The notes: a model not told the origin generated them from the letters alone. A DNA stretch of 4,406 nt from a virus (IMGVR_UViG_2728369553_000009:1-4406), one strand, 5' to 3'; shown: positions 1 to 4,406, numbered from the stretch's first letter. Numbers and translations: made by a program.

Positions 1-106
1 AATATTAATCTTTAATCAATTTTTCACGACAATACTACTTTTATTGATAAAATTGCAACAAGTTGCTGTTGTTTTACTTTCTTTTGTACACAAAGTGTCT
101 TTAACT

Positions 107-707
107 TTATTTATCCCCTGCAGGAAACCTCTTATACAAAGTCGATACACCAATATCATAGATGATCGCTACCTTCTGGCGAGGAATTCCTGCTGCAATT
201 AATCGTCCGGCCTGCTCCCATTGTTCTGGTGTAAGTTTGGGGCGACGTCCACCAATTCGTCCCTGTGCGCGAGCAGCTTCCAGTCCAGCTTTTGTTCGTT
301 CAACAATCAGTTCACGCTCCATTTCAGCCAGGGCACCCATCACATGAAAGAAAAAGCGTCCCATTGGTGTGCTGGTATCAATTGAATCCGTCAGACTACG
401 AAAGTTGATGCCTCGTTCGCGCAACTCCTCCACCAGCACGACAAGATGCCGCATACTACGCCCCAGCCGATCCAGCTTCCAGACAACCAGAGTGTCACCT
501 GCCGATANNNNNNNNNNNNNNNNNNNNNNNNNNNNNNNNNNNNNNNNNNNNNNATGTCCTGAGCAGTTTTTTCAGTCCCGGCCTTTCGGACTTTGTGCCG
601 CTTATCTTGTCTTCAAAAATCAGCTCGCATCCTGCACAGTTCAGCGCATTACGTTGTAGATCTGTGTTCTGGTCATTTGTTGATACGCGTACATAGCCAA
701 TAAGCAT
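107..707 (-). CDS. pin: Serine-recombinase DNA invertase (Pin/Gin/Cin/Hin family); reading frame interrupted by the N-run at 508..553
   Basis: N-terminal translation from ATG (rc of 705..707) reads MLIGYVRVSTNDQNTDLQRNAL...RPGLKKLLRT, the catalytic N-terminus typical of Gin/Cin/Pin invertases. The C-terminal part reads (L)SAGDTLVVWKLDRLGRSMRHLVVLVEELRERGINFRSLTDSIDTSTPMGRFFFHVMGALAEMERE... with a helix-turn-helix tail ending at TAA (rc of 107..109). SD-like AAGGGGA sits 6 nt upstream of the ATG. If the N-run is ignored the two flanks abut in frame and give 184 aa, the length I recall for Pin. Symbol chosen from family plus e14-like neighbourhood; Gin/Cin cannot be excluded without alignment. 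Confidence 0.9.
508..553. other. Run of 46 N (assembly gap or masked bases) inside the invertase gene
   Basis: Contiguous N characters seen directly. The coding flanks on either side are in different frames relative to each other, so the run length is not a faithful placeholder. Confidence 0.95.
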
Positions 708-761
708 GTTAAATCCCCTTGGTAAAAGCAGGAATGATGCCATTTGCTTGTTATTTCTTCA
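708..761 (-). promoter_or_regulatory. Putative invertase promoter / 5' UTR region between the pin start and the left crossover site
   Basis: 54-bp AT-rich spacer immediately upstream of the pin ATG, containing the SD (rc of 713..719). No convincing -35/-10 hexamers could be assigned by eye; placement is inferred from the known arrangement in Gin/Cin systems where the invertase promoter lies at or next to the adjacent crossover site. Confidence 0.3.
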
Positions 762-787
762 TTTTCATAAACGTTGGTTTGGGAGAA
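762..787. repeat. Left crossover site (pix/gix/hix-like, 26 bp)
   Basis: TTTTCATAAACG-TT-GGTTTGGGAGAA: two 12-bp half-sites around a 2-bp core with the AAAC(C)-NN-GGTTT centre typical of Hin-family sites (about 9/12 match per half-site to the hix consensus as I recall it). Bases 774..788 are a perfect reverse complement of 2634..2648. Confidence 0.75.
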
Positions 788-1132
788 GCGGCAAGAAGGA
801 ATGTGGGGACAGGGGAAAATCAGATACCGGATATGGGAGCATTCGCTTCTGGCTCGGGATGGTTCAGGCTACCAGGTGGATATATTGTTCAGTTTGGCAC
901 TTTTTCAGGAAACACGACTCGCTTTATCAGTGGACACTTCCCTATACCATTCCCTAATCGGCCGATGGTTTCAGTCAGTGTTATGTCTGATGCCGTTCAG
1001 TCAGACCCGTCGAATCCTGCCCCGCAGGTTTTGTCTGTAAATTTTGAACATATCAGTAATTCAGCGTGGCGTGTGGCAACCAGTGATATCTCACAGCAAT
1101 ACAGATTCAGTTATATTTCGATAGGATGGTAG
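776..1132 (+). CDS. Alternative tail-fibre C-terminal cassette (no own start; silent in this orientation, fused to the fibre N-terminus after inversion)
   Basis: Reading from inside the left crossover site the frame is GGT TTG GGA GAA = G L G E, the same residues (..ENLGLGE..) encoded across the right site in the fibre gene. It then continues open for 114 codons (AARRNVGTGENQIPDMGAFASGSGWFRLPGGYIVQFGTF...SYISIGW) to TAG at 1130..1132. The in-frame ATG at 719 has no SD and lies upstream of the site. Confidence 0.7.
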   Translation, partial: GLGEAARRNVGTGENQIPDMGAFASGSGWFRLPGGYIVQFGTFSGNTTRFISGHFPIPFPNRPMVSVSVMSDAVQSDPSNPAPQVLSVNFEHISNSAWRVATSDISQQYRFSYISIGW

Positions 1133-1134
1133 AA

Positions 1135-1575
1135 ATGCAGAAATATATTTTCAGTGCCGATAAAAATGCGTTTTTCCCTGTGGAGCTTAAAATCGCTTAT
1201 CAGGAATCCGGTGAATGGCCCGATGATGGAATCGAAATTGACGACACTGTTGCCGCCGAATTTATGAAGGAAGCACCAGAAGGAAAATACAGAGGTGTCA
1301 TCGACGGAATGCCTGCATGGATTGATATTCCACCGCCAACTCATGAGGAACAAATTGCCGCAGCCGAACTGGAAAAGCAGCAATTGATTAATCAGGTCAA
1401 CGAATACATAAACAGTAAGCAATGGCCTGGTAAAGCGGCGATTGGTCGCCTGAAAGGTGAGGAACTGGCGCAATATAATTTGTGGCTGGATTATCTGGAC
1501 ACACTGGAACTGGTCGATACTTCCGGTGCGCCAGATATTGAATGGCCTACGCCTACGGCAGTTCAGGCCAGATGA
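1135..1575 (+). CDS. Tail fibre assembly protein (Tfa / Mu U-like chaperone), cognate to the silent cassette
   Basis: Translation MQKYIFSADKNAFFPVELK... ends with the conserved Tfa C-terminal motif LDYLDTLELVDTSGAPDIEWPTP. AGGA at 1122..1125 lies 9 nt before ATG 1135. The ORF track starts at ATG 1126, which has no usable SD spacing, so 1135 is preferred; 1126 remains possible. Confidence 0.8.
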   Translation: MQKYIFSADKNAFFPVELKIAYQESGEWPDDGIEIDDTVAAEFMKEAPEGKYRGVIDGMPAWIDIPPPTHEEQIAAAELEKQQLINQVNEYINSKQWPGKAAIGRLKGEELAQYNLWLDYLDTLELVDTSGAPDIEWPTPTAVQAR

Positions 1576-2149
1576 CATCCGGCGCGGTGCTGGTATCTGT
1601 TACCGTCACCGCGTCAATGTAATCCAGCACGGCGTTAAGTCGGGTTGTTTCTGCCTGCGTCAGCTTCCGCCCGGCTCGTAATTTCAGCTGAATCAGACTG
1701 ATGGAAGCCATTGCAGCATCAATCAGCGACTGGCGCTTTACTTCTGCCGCGTCTAGTGCGGCGCTATGCTGTGCCTCGGTATCTGTCACCCATTTTTCAC
1801 CATCCCATTTATCGTATGGTGTTAACGGGGCGATAGTGGTTGTATTTTCAGGGTAATCACCCGGAGCTGTGATTTCTTTCGATTCTCCTGTTTCGGTGCT
1901 ATAGATGATTTCACCGCGATGGTCTGGCACATATTCCCATGAGTTAAAATCTGCAGAACGGCAGATTGCATAACCAGCTTTATGTGTAACTGGTGCATCT
2001 AAACAAGAACATGCCGGGATACCGACGCCAACCGCAAGATATTCAGTTGACGTGGAAATATATTCCCGTGTTTCACCATCGTAGTTATAAACGGTAACAT
2101 CCCCTGCCTTTGTTGCAATAAGCTCACTATTTAATATTGCTTTATGCAT
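1553..2149 (-). CDS. Tail fibre assembly protein (lambda Tfa-like chaperone), cognate to the currently expressed fibre end
   Basis: 198 aa ending ...RLNAVLDYIDAVTVTDTSTAPDVIWPELP, closely resembling the lambda Tfa C-terminus as I recall it (..NRVDTSTAPDIEWP..). Its ATG (rc of 2147..2149) overlaps the fibre stop as ATGA; GAGGG SD lies about 9 nt upstream. Confidence 0.85.
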   Translation of the reverse strand: MHKAILNSELIATKAGDVTVYNYDGETREYISTSTEYLAVGVGIPACSCLDAPVTHKAGYAICRSADFNSWEYVPDHRGEIIYSTETGESKEITAPGDYPENTTTIAPLTPYDKWDGEKWVTDTEAQHSAALDAAEVKRQSLIDAAMASISLIQLKLRAGRKLTQAETTRLNAVLDYIDAVTVTDTSTAPDVIWPELP

Positions 2150-2937
2150 CAGGCTGCCCTCACGATATAGTTAAATGCAATATTACGCGGACGCGTTTCT
2201 GAGGCTGCGACACCTAAACCAGCCACTGATTGTTTATATGTTTTAAAGGTTCCATAATCCGGTGCTGGTAATCCGGCATCGTTTGTGTTTCCTCTTTTGA
2301 TAATGTCAGTGCCACTATTTACCCAGCTTTCATCAAAATAGAAATTAATAGTTGCATCAGTCACAATCGTGGATCTTGACGGTAATCCATGAGCATGATC
2401 CTCCGTTGCATATCCCTGAATACTTAAAATAGAGCGACCTGTATCAATCCCACGCCCGTCATCCCAGCCACGAATAAACTCACCACGTAAATCAGGCAAT
2501 TTATTTGTCGGGTAAACTTTTGCCAGTTCCGGGTATTCTTCAGCAGAAAAAGCTGCACCATTGCATTTCAGCCAGCCTGTTGGCGGAGTGGCTGAAGGCC
2601 ACGGAACAGGGACACCAACAGGTAATGCAGAGCCTTCTCCCAAACCAAGGTTTTCGAGAGCCATTTTCACCGTGCCATCCGATTTGATATCGCCAAACGG
2701 ATTCTTGCGGCTTAATAGCAGCGCACGAAGCGCGGTAAGCAACTGGTCGTGCCGCCCTTTCTCCAGGCTGGCACCGGATGCCTCCACAACGCTGCAAAGC
2801 TCCTCCTGCAACATGTCAAAGTAGTCATCATCCAGATCGGTGGCAGGTGTGCCGGTCTGGGGGTTACCACGGGTAAAACCGTTCTTACCCGCGCCGAACT
2901 TATCCTTCTGCGCGGTTTTCGTGTCTATACGATGCAT
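2149..2937 (-). CDS. Tail fibre protein: constant N-terminus (residues 1-101) plus the currently expressed variable C-terminus containing a phage tail-collar-like region
   Basis: 262-aa ORF with GGAG SD 9 nt upstream of the ATG (rc of 2935..2937). Residues ~110-190 ([38 protein letters not shown]...[19 protein letters not shown]) look like a phage tail collar domain. The right crossover site lies inside the gene at the codons for ENLGLGE. Confidence 0.85.
2635..2660. repeat. Right crossover site (pix/gix/hix-like, 26 bp), inside the tail-fibre coding sequence
   Basis: TTCTCCCAAACC-AA-GGTTTTCGAGAG, the same half-site/core architecture as the left site and inverted relative to it (2634..2648 is the reverse complement of 774..788). 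Confidence 0.75.
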
Positions 2938-2940
2938 GAA

Positions 2941-3525
2941 TTACTCCGGATATTTAAAAATTACGTAGGTATGCGACGGGCAGAGTTTGTTAAGCACACA
3001 CTCGACAACGGTGTCGCCCCAGATACGCAGTGCGGAATCACAGGGATCGCCACATGTCATCCAGGTGGTGTTGGTGGCGGCTGGCATGTTGACCTGCCAG
3101 TAATACCGCCATTCCGGCGCATTCACAGCGTCAGTGCAGGCTGATGAGCAGGTGAACGTGCTTTTGTCGTATCGCGTGATGGTAGCGTCTGGTCTGCCCA
3201 GGGCAGCAAGCTGTGCAAGGTAAAAATCCTCATTGATGCCGCCCGCCAGGTTAACCTTCGCATCCAGTCGTTGCTGACGCTGGCGAAGGGTCTGTGTCCC
3301 TGCGGGAATACATTCATCCGGCAGGCCGCACAGACGCTCCCAGCGGTTTATCAGTTCGGTGGTGGTGCGCGGATCCAGCTCCCGCATCAGGGCATCCGCA
3401 CGCTGATGAACGCGGGTTAATGACGGTGCCGCACCGGCAATCGCCGGATCGCTGGCTGACCACGCCGGACCGGGCGGCAACAGTGCCGATAACAGGCGGA
3501 TGTAATCATCGTTTGTCACGTCCAT
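2941..3525 (-). CDS. Phage tail protein, DUF2313 family (Mu gp48 / e14 YmfQ-like)
   Basis: 194-aa [26 protein letters not shown]... sitting between the baseplate J-like gene and the tail fibre, the gpI position in a P2-type baseplate/fibre operon. GGGGA SD about 8 nt upstream of the ATG. Family call is from recalled similarity and gene order, not a search. Confidence 0.7.
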
Positions 3526-4406
3526 GAAATCGTCCCCAGAACCGCCAGCTCATTTTTCGCAATGGAGATATTGTCCGCCGGGGCAAGCAACTGATGGCTG
3601 TATTCCCCGTTCGCACCGGAAATCGCTTCACTGATACGCGACACCTTCAGTTCTCCCTGCGGATAACCATCACGCAGCAGGAACGAACGCAACTCCGCGG
3701 TGATGGCAGCCCGTATTTCCGGTGTGTCCGGCGTCACGCGGATATGAAAATCCACCGTATGTGCCACCGGCCTAAACACATACAAATCAGAGCCTGCCAC
3801 CGGGGCCAGTGGCTCGATATGTTGTCTTGCCGCCGTTTCCGTTGATTCTTCCGGAATGGGATTAATCAGGTCACTGCTGGCAATCATCACACCGACAGTT
3901 CCCGTTCCCATCCAGTGACGGTATGTCCATGCGCGGGTAATGCCGGGCACTTCTTTAGCCCAGACGACATAGTCCCCGTCAGCCCCGCCCTGCGGCGTCC
4001 AGTAATACCGCTCAATGACGCGGGCGCGCCACGTTTCCAGATCTTCAGTATCGAATCCGCCAGTCAGGGTATCTGCAACACCGGAAGACGGCAGACCATT
4101 CACCGGCGTGACCAGGATTAATGCCGTACCGTCGTCAGCGTTACCGACCGCGCCTGTAGTTGAGCAAGTGATCGGCACACGTAGGACACCACCGGAGCTG
4201 GTTGCATCGGCAGTTGCCGTGTACTGAACCAGGTCATCGCGCTGAATCACGCTCCCGGCAGTCACCTTCAGGCCATCGCTGACGCCTTCCCAGCGCATAT
4301 ACCCGCTGGCAGTCGTGGCCCCCTTGCGCGGACACCGTTTCATCGCAGCATGTCGCGCCAGCCAGGACTCATCGCACAGGTCAGGCAGCATGTTCATTGC
4401 CAGATA
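3516..4406 (-). CDS. Baseplate J-like protein (P2 gpJ / Mu gp47 family); 5' end probably beyond the window
   Basis: Long minus-strand ORF with TGA at rc of 3516..3518 overlapping the next gene's start by 10 nt. The frame stays open from the first ATG (4397) to the window edge and no SD is visible, so the true start is likely upstream. Family assigned from position upstream of the DUF2313 and fibre genes and the general look of the C-terminus. Confidence 0.65.

Follow-up and report, generated by a model that had tools for sequence, protein, structure and literature searches.

The reading frame at 776 to 1132 of the window, the 4,406 nt stretch of viral DNA analysed here (IMGVR_UViG_2728369553_000009:1-4406), is with high probability (about 0.92) a stored alternative C-terminal module of a tail fibre gene, carried in the PinE-inverted P segment of an e14-family prophage at the icd locus of Escherichia coli ECONIH5. 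According to the proposed mechanism, the adjacent serine invertase, PinE, would flip a segment of approximately 1.87 kb that is bounded by sites at 762-787 and 2635-2660 and contains two convergent gene sets, each predicting a fibre tip and its own Tfa chaperone. The fibre promoter and codons 1-101 would lie outside the segment, so that inversion would exchange both tip and chaperone behind a constant N-terminus. The current state would then be a 262 aa fibre with a collar, T4 gp37-type tip, served by TfaE, and the flipped state a 215 aa fibre with a gp53-like, R-pyocin-foot tip, served by a Tfa of 146 aa. Carrying two tips would give virions with two host ranges, as in the G segment of phage Mu and the C segment of P1. 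The feature is the already known Pin/P-segment tail fibre switch, and the tip allele is common and already annotated. It is a textbook programmed inversion that provides the prophage with two receptor-binding tips, and the value of the present case is mainly in correct annotation.

The window matches the ECONIH5 chromosome [GenBank accession number NZ_CP026202.1] with 100% identity from 554 to 3000 and with a single mismatch, at 3774, from 554 to 4406, in the region 539.5-543.9 kb. Neighbouring genes in ECONIH5 are pinE, a broken mcrA and a remnant of icd, which together mark the e14 attachment locus, and the region is the terminal part of a prophage with baseplate, tail tube, sheath, tape-measure and head genes. 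The features assigned in the window are as follows.

107..707, minus strand: pinE, serine DNA invertase (Pfam Resolvase and HTH_7; annotated pinE in ECONIH5).
623..685, no strand: candidate recombinational enhancer within the 5′ part of pinE (a pair of Fis-consensus matches with a spacing of 48 bp).
734..1132, plus strand: pin-proximal ORF, comprising the leader MMPFACYFFIFINV and the tip cassette (from the ORF list; counterpart of K-12 StfE2, expression putative).
762..787, no strand: predicted crossover site A (pin-proximal), TTTTCATAAACG-TT-GGTTTGGGAGAA, which aligns with Mu gix TTATCCAAAACCTCGGTTTACAGGAA and has the same sequence as the site in K-12 e14.
776..1132, plus strand: predicted stored alternative fibre C-terminus (GLGE, 114 aa and stop; PF21882, gp53-like or R-pyocin-foot type).
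1135..1575, plus strand: tail fibre assembly chaperone of the stored tip, 146 aa (Pfam Caudo_TAP, E = 1.1e-33; annotated by RefSeq in ECONIH5).
1553..2149, minus strand: tfaE, chaperone of the current tip, 198 aa (Pfam Caudo_TAP, E = 1.1e-30; annotated tfaE).
2149..2634, minus strand: current variable fibre C-terminus, residues 102-262 and stop (PF07484 Collar, E = 6.9e-15).
2635..2660, no strand: predicted crossover site B, inside the fibre gene, plus strand TTCTCCCAAACC-AA-GGTTTTCGAGAG.
2635..2937, minus strand: constant fibre N-terminus, residues 1-101, outside the invertible segment (from translation).
2941..3525, minus strand: ymfQ, Mu gp48-like baseplate wedge gene directly upstream of the fibre gene (Phage_Mu_Gp48, E = 9.4e-27; annotated ymfQ).
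3516..4406, minus strand: Baseplate J or gp47-like gene that runs out of the end of the window (Baseplate_J, E = 2.1e-54; 1059 nt in ECONIH5).

The two tfa genes are convergent and overlap by 23 bp. Their products can be aligned only over the C-terminal ∼77 aa (34% identity), with no detectable similarity between the N-terminal regions, and this divergence is consistent with each chaperone serving its own tip. The constant N-terminus of the fibre shows weak similarity to the N-terminal region of the Mu fibre protein S (5YVQ and 8JU3). In the RefSeq annotation of ECONIH5, the gene for the current fibre is called a partial pseudogene, and only a separate 99 aa protein is listed for the stored tip. 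The pseudogene call is contradicted by the 262 aa fibre ORF, which is uninterrupted and includes a full Collar domain, and the two RefSeq entries are parts of one two-state gene. One of the baseplate genes in ECONIH5 is frameshifted and mcrA contains an internal stop codon. Hence, the prophage in this strain may no longer produce particles, and host-range switching would then be without effect there.

A perfect 15 bp inverted repeat, TTGGTTTGGGAGAAG, is found at 774-788 on the plus strand and 2634-2648 on the minus strand, in both cases at the codons for GLGE. It lies within the strongest inverted repeat of the window (769-788 and 2634-2653), and no further copy is present in the window even when up to 2 mismatches are allowed. 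A multi-site shufflon was rejected on the basis of this count of two sites. The frame that opens at 776 reads GLGEAARRNVGTGENQIPDMGAF...ISIGW, i.e. GLGE followed by AARRNVGTGENQIPDMGAF and the remainder of the tip, with the stop codon at 1130-1132, and predicts 118 aa in total, 114 of them beyond GLGE. On the opposite strand, the current fibre ORF (2937..2149), which is the largest minus-strand ORF of the region, predicts 262 aa with GLGE at residues 98-101.

When 774..2648 was reverse-complemented in silico and translated from the fibre ATG, an uninterrupted ORF of 215 aa (101 + 114) was obtained, in which 161 residues of the current form are replaced. The inverted sequence was searched at the junction for a frameshift or a stop codon and contains neither, and the in-frame fusion of fibre residues 1-101 to 114 new residues, as proposed in the original prediction, is thus borne out. 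The first codon to diverge is likewise the one expected, residue 102, immediately after the perfect repeat, with G (GGC) in the current fibre and A (GCG) in the stored copy.

If the repeat and the open frame were coincidental, the two fibre-like regions would simply be independent genes, and the shortness of the repeat (15 bp) is the only point that favours this. However, the number of matches expected by chance is 0.01 and none of 200 dinucleotide-preserving shuffles, used as the null model, contained two matches, while the repeat occupies the same codons in both copies, has an invertase gene adjacent to it, and predicts a fusion that is present in other genomes (see below). Coincidence is therefore hardly credible, and was ruled out by the shuffles together with the occurrence of the fusion elsewhere and the inversion seen between sister isolates.

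The 15 bp repeats are the conserved cores of two 26 bp sites of the Gin/Hin type, at 762-787 and 2635-2660. Both sites are imperfect palindromes, and they are in inverted orientation with an identical central dinucleotide (TT, in the same sense). Read on the fibre strand, site B is CTCTCGAAAACC-TT-GGTTTGGGAGAA and encodes ALENLGLGE. The half-sites TTCTCCCAAACC, CTCTCGAAAACC and TTTTCATAAACG resemble the half-sites of Mu gix, which in the Mu genome record reads TTATCCAAAACC-TC-GGTTTACAGGAA and is found at the equivalent point of the fibre gene S. As in the homologous Gin and Hin systems, the strands would be expected to exchange at the central TT/AA dinucleotide (774-775 and 2647-2648) with the assistance of a Fis-bound enhancer. 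In the Leu/Val codon that precedes GLGE, the central TT supplies positions two and three. Thus, the proposal that the crossover falls at the GLGE codons and preserves the frame is correct for the position of both repeat copies and for the protein product, whereas the strand-exchange point itself is expected inside the preceding Leu/Val codon and not inside GLGE, which leaves the product the same.

With the run of 46 Ns at 508-553 removed, pinE is intact (555 nt, 184 aa, start MLIGYVRVSTNDQ) and its product includes the YVRVSTxxQ catalytic motif and shares 79.6% identity with Mu Gin over 181 aa. The 46 Ns are absent from the RefSeq record. Invertases of the Hin family use two 26 bp sites and a Fis-bound enhancer located ∼100 bp from one of them (PMC3798978). 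Matches to the Fis consensus were found at nt 23-37 and 71-85 of pin, the same positions as in Mu gin, and ∼97 bp separate the proximal match from the centre of site A, though the motif is degenerate and ∼2 matches per 300 nt are expected by chance. The pair fits the layout of the Hin enhancer and is a candidate at the level of the motif.

The flipped form was found in nature. The predicted 648 nt gene is present without interruption in at least 17 complete E. coli genomes, with 95-97.7% nucleotide identity, where it is nearly always annotated as a gp53-like domain-containing protein. At the protein level, the flipped forms in strain GZ2408P and in phage SKA5 are 98% and 96% identical to the prediction, respectively. 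In GZ2408P the gene order is ymfQ, a fibre gene of the 215 aa type, the gene for the 146 aa chaperone, a convergent chaperone gene, a stored tip and the invertase gene, and the isolated phage SKA5 [GenBank accession number OR670062] likewise carries a 215 aa fibre in the same ymfQ-fibre-tfa/tfa-tip-invertase layout. Wherever the expressed form was found (GZ2408P and SKA5), the gene for the 146 aa chaperone is directly 3′ of the 215 aa fibre gene. With the entire in-silico inverted region as the query, 7 genomes matched at a coverage of 80% or more, and 12 did so for the orientation of the window.

A further case is the pair CH458 and CH423, isolated in one hospital, whose genome sizes are within 13 bp of each other. 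They are identical over 5.5 kb apart from 1881 bp between the same 15 bp repeats, which is exactly reverse-complemented. CH458 has a fibre of 220 aa, with another gp53-like allele, and CH423 one of 262 aa. This flip and the uninterrupted natural genes support the central claim of the original prediction, a stored alternative fibre C-terminus that is joined in frame by site-specific inversion. For ECONIH5 itself the support is indirect, and inversion there would be expected by likeness to the flip between the sister isolates, from the presence of both orientations among genomes and from experiments in K-12.

The cassette is not confined to prophages of this type. A P2-like prophage of strain PSJ-07 includes the same 1.88 kb segment, with 96% DNA identity and an invertase gene alongside, and here the tip forms the expressed end of a 468 aa fibre. 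The fibre shaft, N-terminus and baseplate genes of this Peduovirus-like element differ from those in the window and are of the P2 gpH/gpI/gpJ type, and the sharing of one cassette between different shafts and baseplates indicates horizontal exchange between phage types at the crossover and junction motif. In addition, 19 phage records (E. coli, Salmonella and Klebsiella) contain the tip with 96-97% amino acid identity. Most members of the tip family open with the conserved motif GLGE-AAKRxVGTGxNQIPDM, and the crossover site therefore doubles as a module junction. A tip and chaperone cassette that moves between Mu-like-tailed and P2-like phages at NLGLGE, the crossover junction, would be useful for engineering the host range of phages or tailocins.

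The two C-termini were said to show no similarity, and this was confirmed, with a best BLASTP E value of 0.9 and assignment to different Pfam families, PF21882 and PF07484. The flipped 215 aa protein includes Gp53-like_C (PF21882) at residues 128-215 (E = 1.7e-8; 35.3 bits against a gathering threshold of 24.9). Pfam named this family after gp53. The gp53-like domain is related to gp53 of Acinetobacter phage AP22 (PMC12529663). A profile built from diverse members of the stored-tip family matches solved chains 4MTM, 6CXB, 6CL5, 6CT8 and 6CL6, with E values from 1.7e-9 (4MTM) to 2.4e-6 (6.3e-8 for 6CXB). The matches span the whole C-terminal domain and reach the last residue, with a common ...IAIGY/W terminus. 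4MTM was deposited as a putative tail fiber protein, and the match is to its C-terminal domain; 6CXB and 6CL5 are R1-type pyocin fibres, and 6CT8 and 6CL6 are R2-type pyocin fibres. Although the stored tip matches the R-type pyocin foot and the AP22 gp53 domain by profile, sequence identity is low, and R-type pyocin fibres do not switch by inversion.

An exhaustive protein search recovered homologues of the stored tip in 433 representative clusters at E ≤ 0.001, and in the best 150 of these, proteins of 68 to 1893 aa, the match falls at the C-terminus or close to it. For the stored tip, AlphaFold2 modelling gave a mean pLDDT of 41.5 (single sequence) or 43.8 (alignment of 26 close homologues), which is too low for a fold search, and the fold assignment is for this reason drawn from sequence profiles only. 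On these profiles, the stored tip is predicted to be a receptor-binding domain of the gp53-like, R-pyocin-foot type. For the current tip, comparison of sequences with PDB entries instead identified a short tail fibre (9CUY, 4.8e-18) and the tip of T4 gp37 (2XGF, 1.4e-17). The two tips thus fall into different receptor-binding families, which supports, though short of proof, a difference in specificity. From the unrelated folds and the precedent of Mu and P1, we infer that they would bind different receptors and confer two host ranges.

The defects noted above in ECONIH5 (the frameshifted baseplate gene and broken mcrA) raise another reading of 776..1132, as the decaying remnant of a former fibre gene in a segment that no longer inverts. 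Elements of the e14 type are often defective, and the RefSeq entries for the fibre and for the 99 aa tip fragment could be taken in the same sense. However, the ORF for the tip and the gene for its chaperone are intact, and comparison of the stored tip with three expressed copies gives a dN/dS of 0.20-0.24, although from small counts at 95-97% nucleotide identity. PinE is also intact, neither crossover core contains a mismatch, the segment has inverted between sister isolates that share these sites, and the pseudogene call does not suit an uninterrupted 262 aa ORF with a full Collar domain. A fossil segment is thus largely refuted and must be considered very improbable. For the tip itself, which the original prediction had allowed might turn out to be degraded, a Pfam match above threshold, profile matches to solved receptor-binding domains and the dN/dS of ∼0.2 together rule this out.

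Among the known systems close to the stored module is the P segment of the cryptic prophage e14 in E. coli K-12, which was reportedly described by Plasterk and van de Putte in 1985. It was studied again in 2014 and 2025 (PMC4272514, PMC12529663), and in clonal cultures derived from MG1655 both orientations of the P segment coexist (PMC4272514). PinE, PinQ and PinR invert the 1797 bp K-12 segment at TTGGTTTGGGAGAAGG to form chimeras of stfP and stfE, and 33% of 562 E. coli sequences contained the P segment in its inverted state (PMC12529663).

The K-12 e14 element is at the same chromosomal site (icd, mcrA and pinE), and the gene order in MG1655, ymfQ, stfP, tfaP, tfaE, stfE, pinE and mcrA, is that of the locus in the window. 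K-12 StfP (ycfK) has 99 of the 101 N-terminal residues of the fibre in the window, the C-terminus of StfE, the product of a so-called pseudogene, is 97% identical to the collar tip, and the crossover core, TTGGTTTGGGAGAAG(G), is the same. The pin-proximal leader and junction DNA differs by one base over the stretch that can be aligned, up to the end of the repeat. Past the junction, however, the K-12 StfP tip is only ∼26% identical to the gp53-like tip in the window and represents a different allele within a shared family and architecture. With the gp53-like tip, the fibre would be 215 aa in the window and is 209 aa in K-12, the chaperone of this tip is 146 aa in the window and 137 aa (TfaP) in K-12, and the segment spans ∼1875 bp compared with 1797 bp. 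While e14 of K-12 is a remnant, the element in ECONIH5 is a prophage of nearly full length that includes head and tail genes. The orientation in the window corresponds to the inverted state of K-12 (StfP2 and StfE2).

This configuration of the locus is the one tied to T2 resistance in K-12 by the 2025 paper (PMC12529663), and it bears on whether the stored tip is silent, as the original prediction called it. As the segment now lies, the tip belongs to an ORF of 131 or 132 aa, with ATG codons at 734 and 737, that reads MMPFACYFFIFINVGLGE and then continues into the tip, and a 132 aa MULTISPECIES gp53-like domain-containing protein at NCBI, 99% identical to the tip query, is consistent with this 734..1132 ORF. 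The label is not certain, as the ORF matches K-12 StfE2. In K-12, overexpression of StfE2 from a plasmid reportedly lowered T2 adsorption to 3-12%, and resistance to T2 was described for cells held mostly in the inverted state (PMC12529663).

By analogy, the pin-proximal copy could be translated as a protein of 131 or 132 aa, with a short hydrophobic leader and the gp53-like tip, that blocks adsorption of other phages. The switch would then toggle a host defence besides, or instead of, the host range of the virion, and this would add to the main explanation. The ORF at 734..1132 is intact, its leader DNA is one base from that of K-12 over the aligned stretch, the window has the inverted K-12 configuration with StfP2 as the fibre and a collar tip 97% identical to StfE, and the reported effects of StfE2 on T2 adsorption and resistance are in its favour (PMC12529663). 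Versions of the 131/132 aa ORF also dominate the best protein database matches, from E. coli, Salmonella, Klebsiella and Enterobacter, but many 132 aa entries are to be expected from gene callers run on stored cassettes anyway.

Scanning of 554-800 revealed no sigma-70-like promoter upstream of the pin-proximal ORF, on the plus strand, or of pinE, which is a weak negative result. The sole Shine-Dalgarno-like sequence, AGGA, is only 0-3 nt from the ATG, which is a poor spacing, and the leader overlaps site A and the region upstream of pinE, so that its conservation can be explained without a coding role. The K-12 mechanism is itself based on overexpression and docking, and, with only ∼26% identity between the stored tip and that of K-12 StfP/StfE2, the K-12 phenotype is not simply transferable. 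A translated, adsorption-blocking copy is thus unlikely on present evidence, at perhaps a fifth of the weight of certainty, and an extension of it is more doubtful still. In that extension, the stored tip would act as a free StfE2-like shield of 131/132 aa that occupies receptors, and, because the allele is only ∼26% identical to that of K-12, the phages blocked would be other than those blocked by the K-12 allele. The exchanged alleles would then form an invertase-gated defence library, and, if this were true, the tip alleles of e14-like and P2-like prophages would double as a diversifying, receptor-masking defence. Strains with this locus provide a test bed for the T2-resistance claim using a diverged allele.

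For the stored fibre module, a close parallel outside the P segment is the G segment of phage Mu (gin, S/U and S′/U′). Switching of host range by inversion is experimentally established for Mu (G segment, gin) and for P1 (C segment, cin). As in the window, the Mu segment contains two convergent tip and chaperone sets, and the gene for its invertase, Gin, the 79.6% identical counterpart of PinE, is adjacent to but outside the segment. The Mu crossover is homologous and lies inside gene S at the junction of constant and variable parts, where it encodes IQNLGLQE compared with LENLGLGE in the window. The pair of Fis-consensus matches in gin is at the same positions as in pin, and Mu gp47 and gp48 are homologues of the baseplate proteins predicted by the neighbouring genes in the window. 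The systems differ in that the Mu and P1 tips belong to families other than those of the tips in the window. The perfect repeat is 34 bp in Mu and 15 bp in the window, and Mu S is 504 aa with a constant part of 169 aa, whereas the fibres in the window are 215 and 262 aa with a constant part of 101 aa.

This locus was compared between the sister hospital E. coli isolates CH458 and CH423 (L006 and L007, 3.66 Mb). Over 5.5 kb the two are identical outside the inverted region, and the sole difference between them is an exact inversion of 1881 bp bounded by the 15-bp repeats. The gp53-like tip in these isolates is a third allele, giving a 220-aa fibre.

The cassette is also found in a different phage type. 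In E. coli PSJ-07, a P2-like prophage holds the entire invertible cassette (L002 1953-5509) at 96% nucleotide identity, including both tips and both chaperones, but there it is preceded by a 468-aa fibre with an N-terminus unlike that encoded in the window. The stored tip shares 96-97% aa identity with its counterparts in 19 phage records (H86-H104) from E. coli, Salmonella and Klebsiella. Given the cassette in the P2-like prophage and this spread of the stored tip, the NLGLGE/crossover junction is the point at which the cassette is exchanged between unrelated tail types. The two chaperone genes are convergent and their 3′-ends share 23 bp (window 1553-1575). A similar ...APD(I/V)(E/I)WP motif closes both chaperones, encoded on opposite strands.

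As window positions 1-507 and 554 onward abut directly in the ECONIH5 record (L001 12000/12001), the 46 Ns within pinE (window 508-553) are an insertion and not masked real bases. With the Ns retained, pinE appears frameshifted, with 601 nt from ATG to stop, and the 184-aa PinE frame is regained once they are taken out. One further feature was located within this gene:

623-685, pinE nt 23-85, candidate recombinational enhancer with two degenerate Fis consensus matches

The two matches are spaced 48 bp apart and lie approximately 97 bp from crossover site A, and Fis consensus matches occur at identical positions in gin of phage Mu. This pair is a candidate for the recombinational enhancer, as predicted from the motif.

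RefSeq/PGAP labels the current fibre gene (window 2149-2937) a pseudogene, partial and 'missing C-terminus', whose extent corresponds to window 2424-2937; the label is found in both ECONIH5 (L001 13871-14384) and CH423 (L007 3407-3920). Despite this, the ORF runs without interruption for 262 aa and includes a complete Collar domain. The label appears to be an annotation artefact that affects fibres with tips swapped by inversion. The current tip matches the T4 gp37 tip (2XGF) and carries a single H-x-H motif (EDHAHGL; window 2310-2340, fibre residues about 200-209). In the gp37 needle, iron is bound by repeated HxH motifs.

In the ECONIH5 genome, a stop codon interrupts mcrA and a frameshift affects one of the baseplate assembly genes (L001 10660-11493 and 16981-18061). 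The remainder of the prophage, from capsid to fibre, appears complete. This prophage may be a recently inactivated phage, in contrast to K-12 e14, which is a small remnant. Over 3853 bases, the only mismatch to the ECONIH5 RefSeq sequence is at window 3774 in the baseplate J gene, where the window has A and RefSeq has G.
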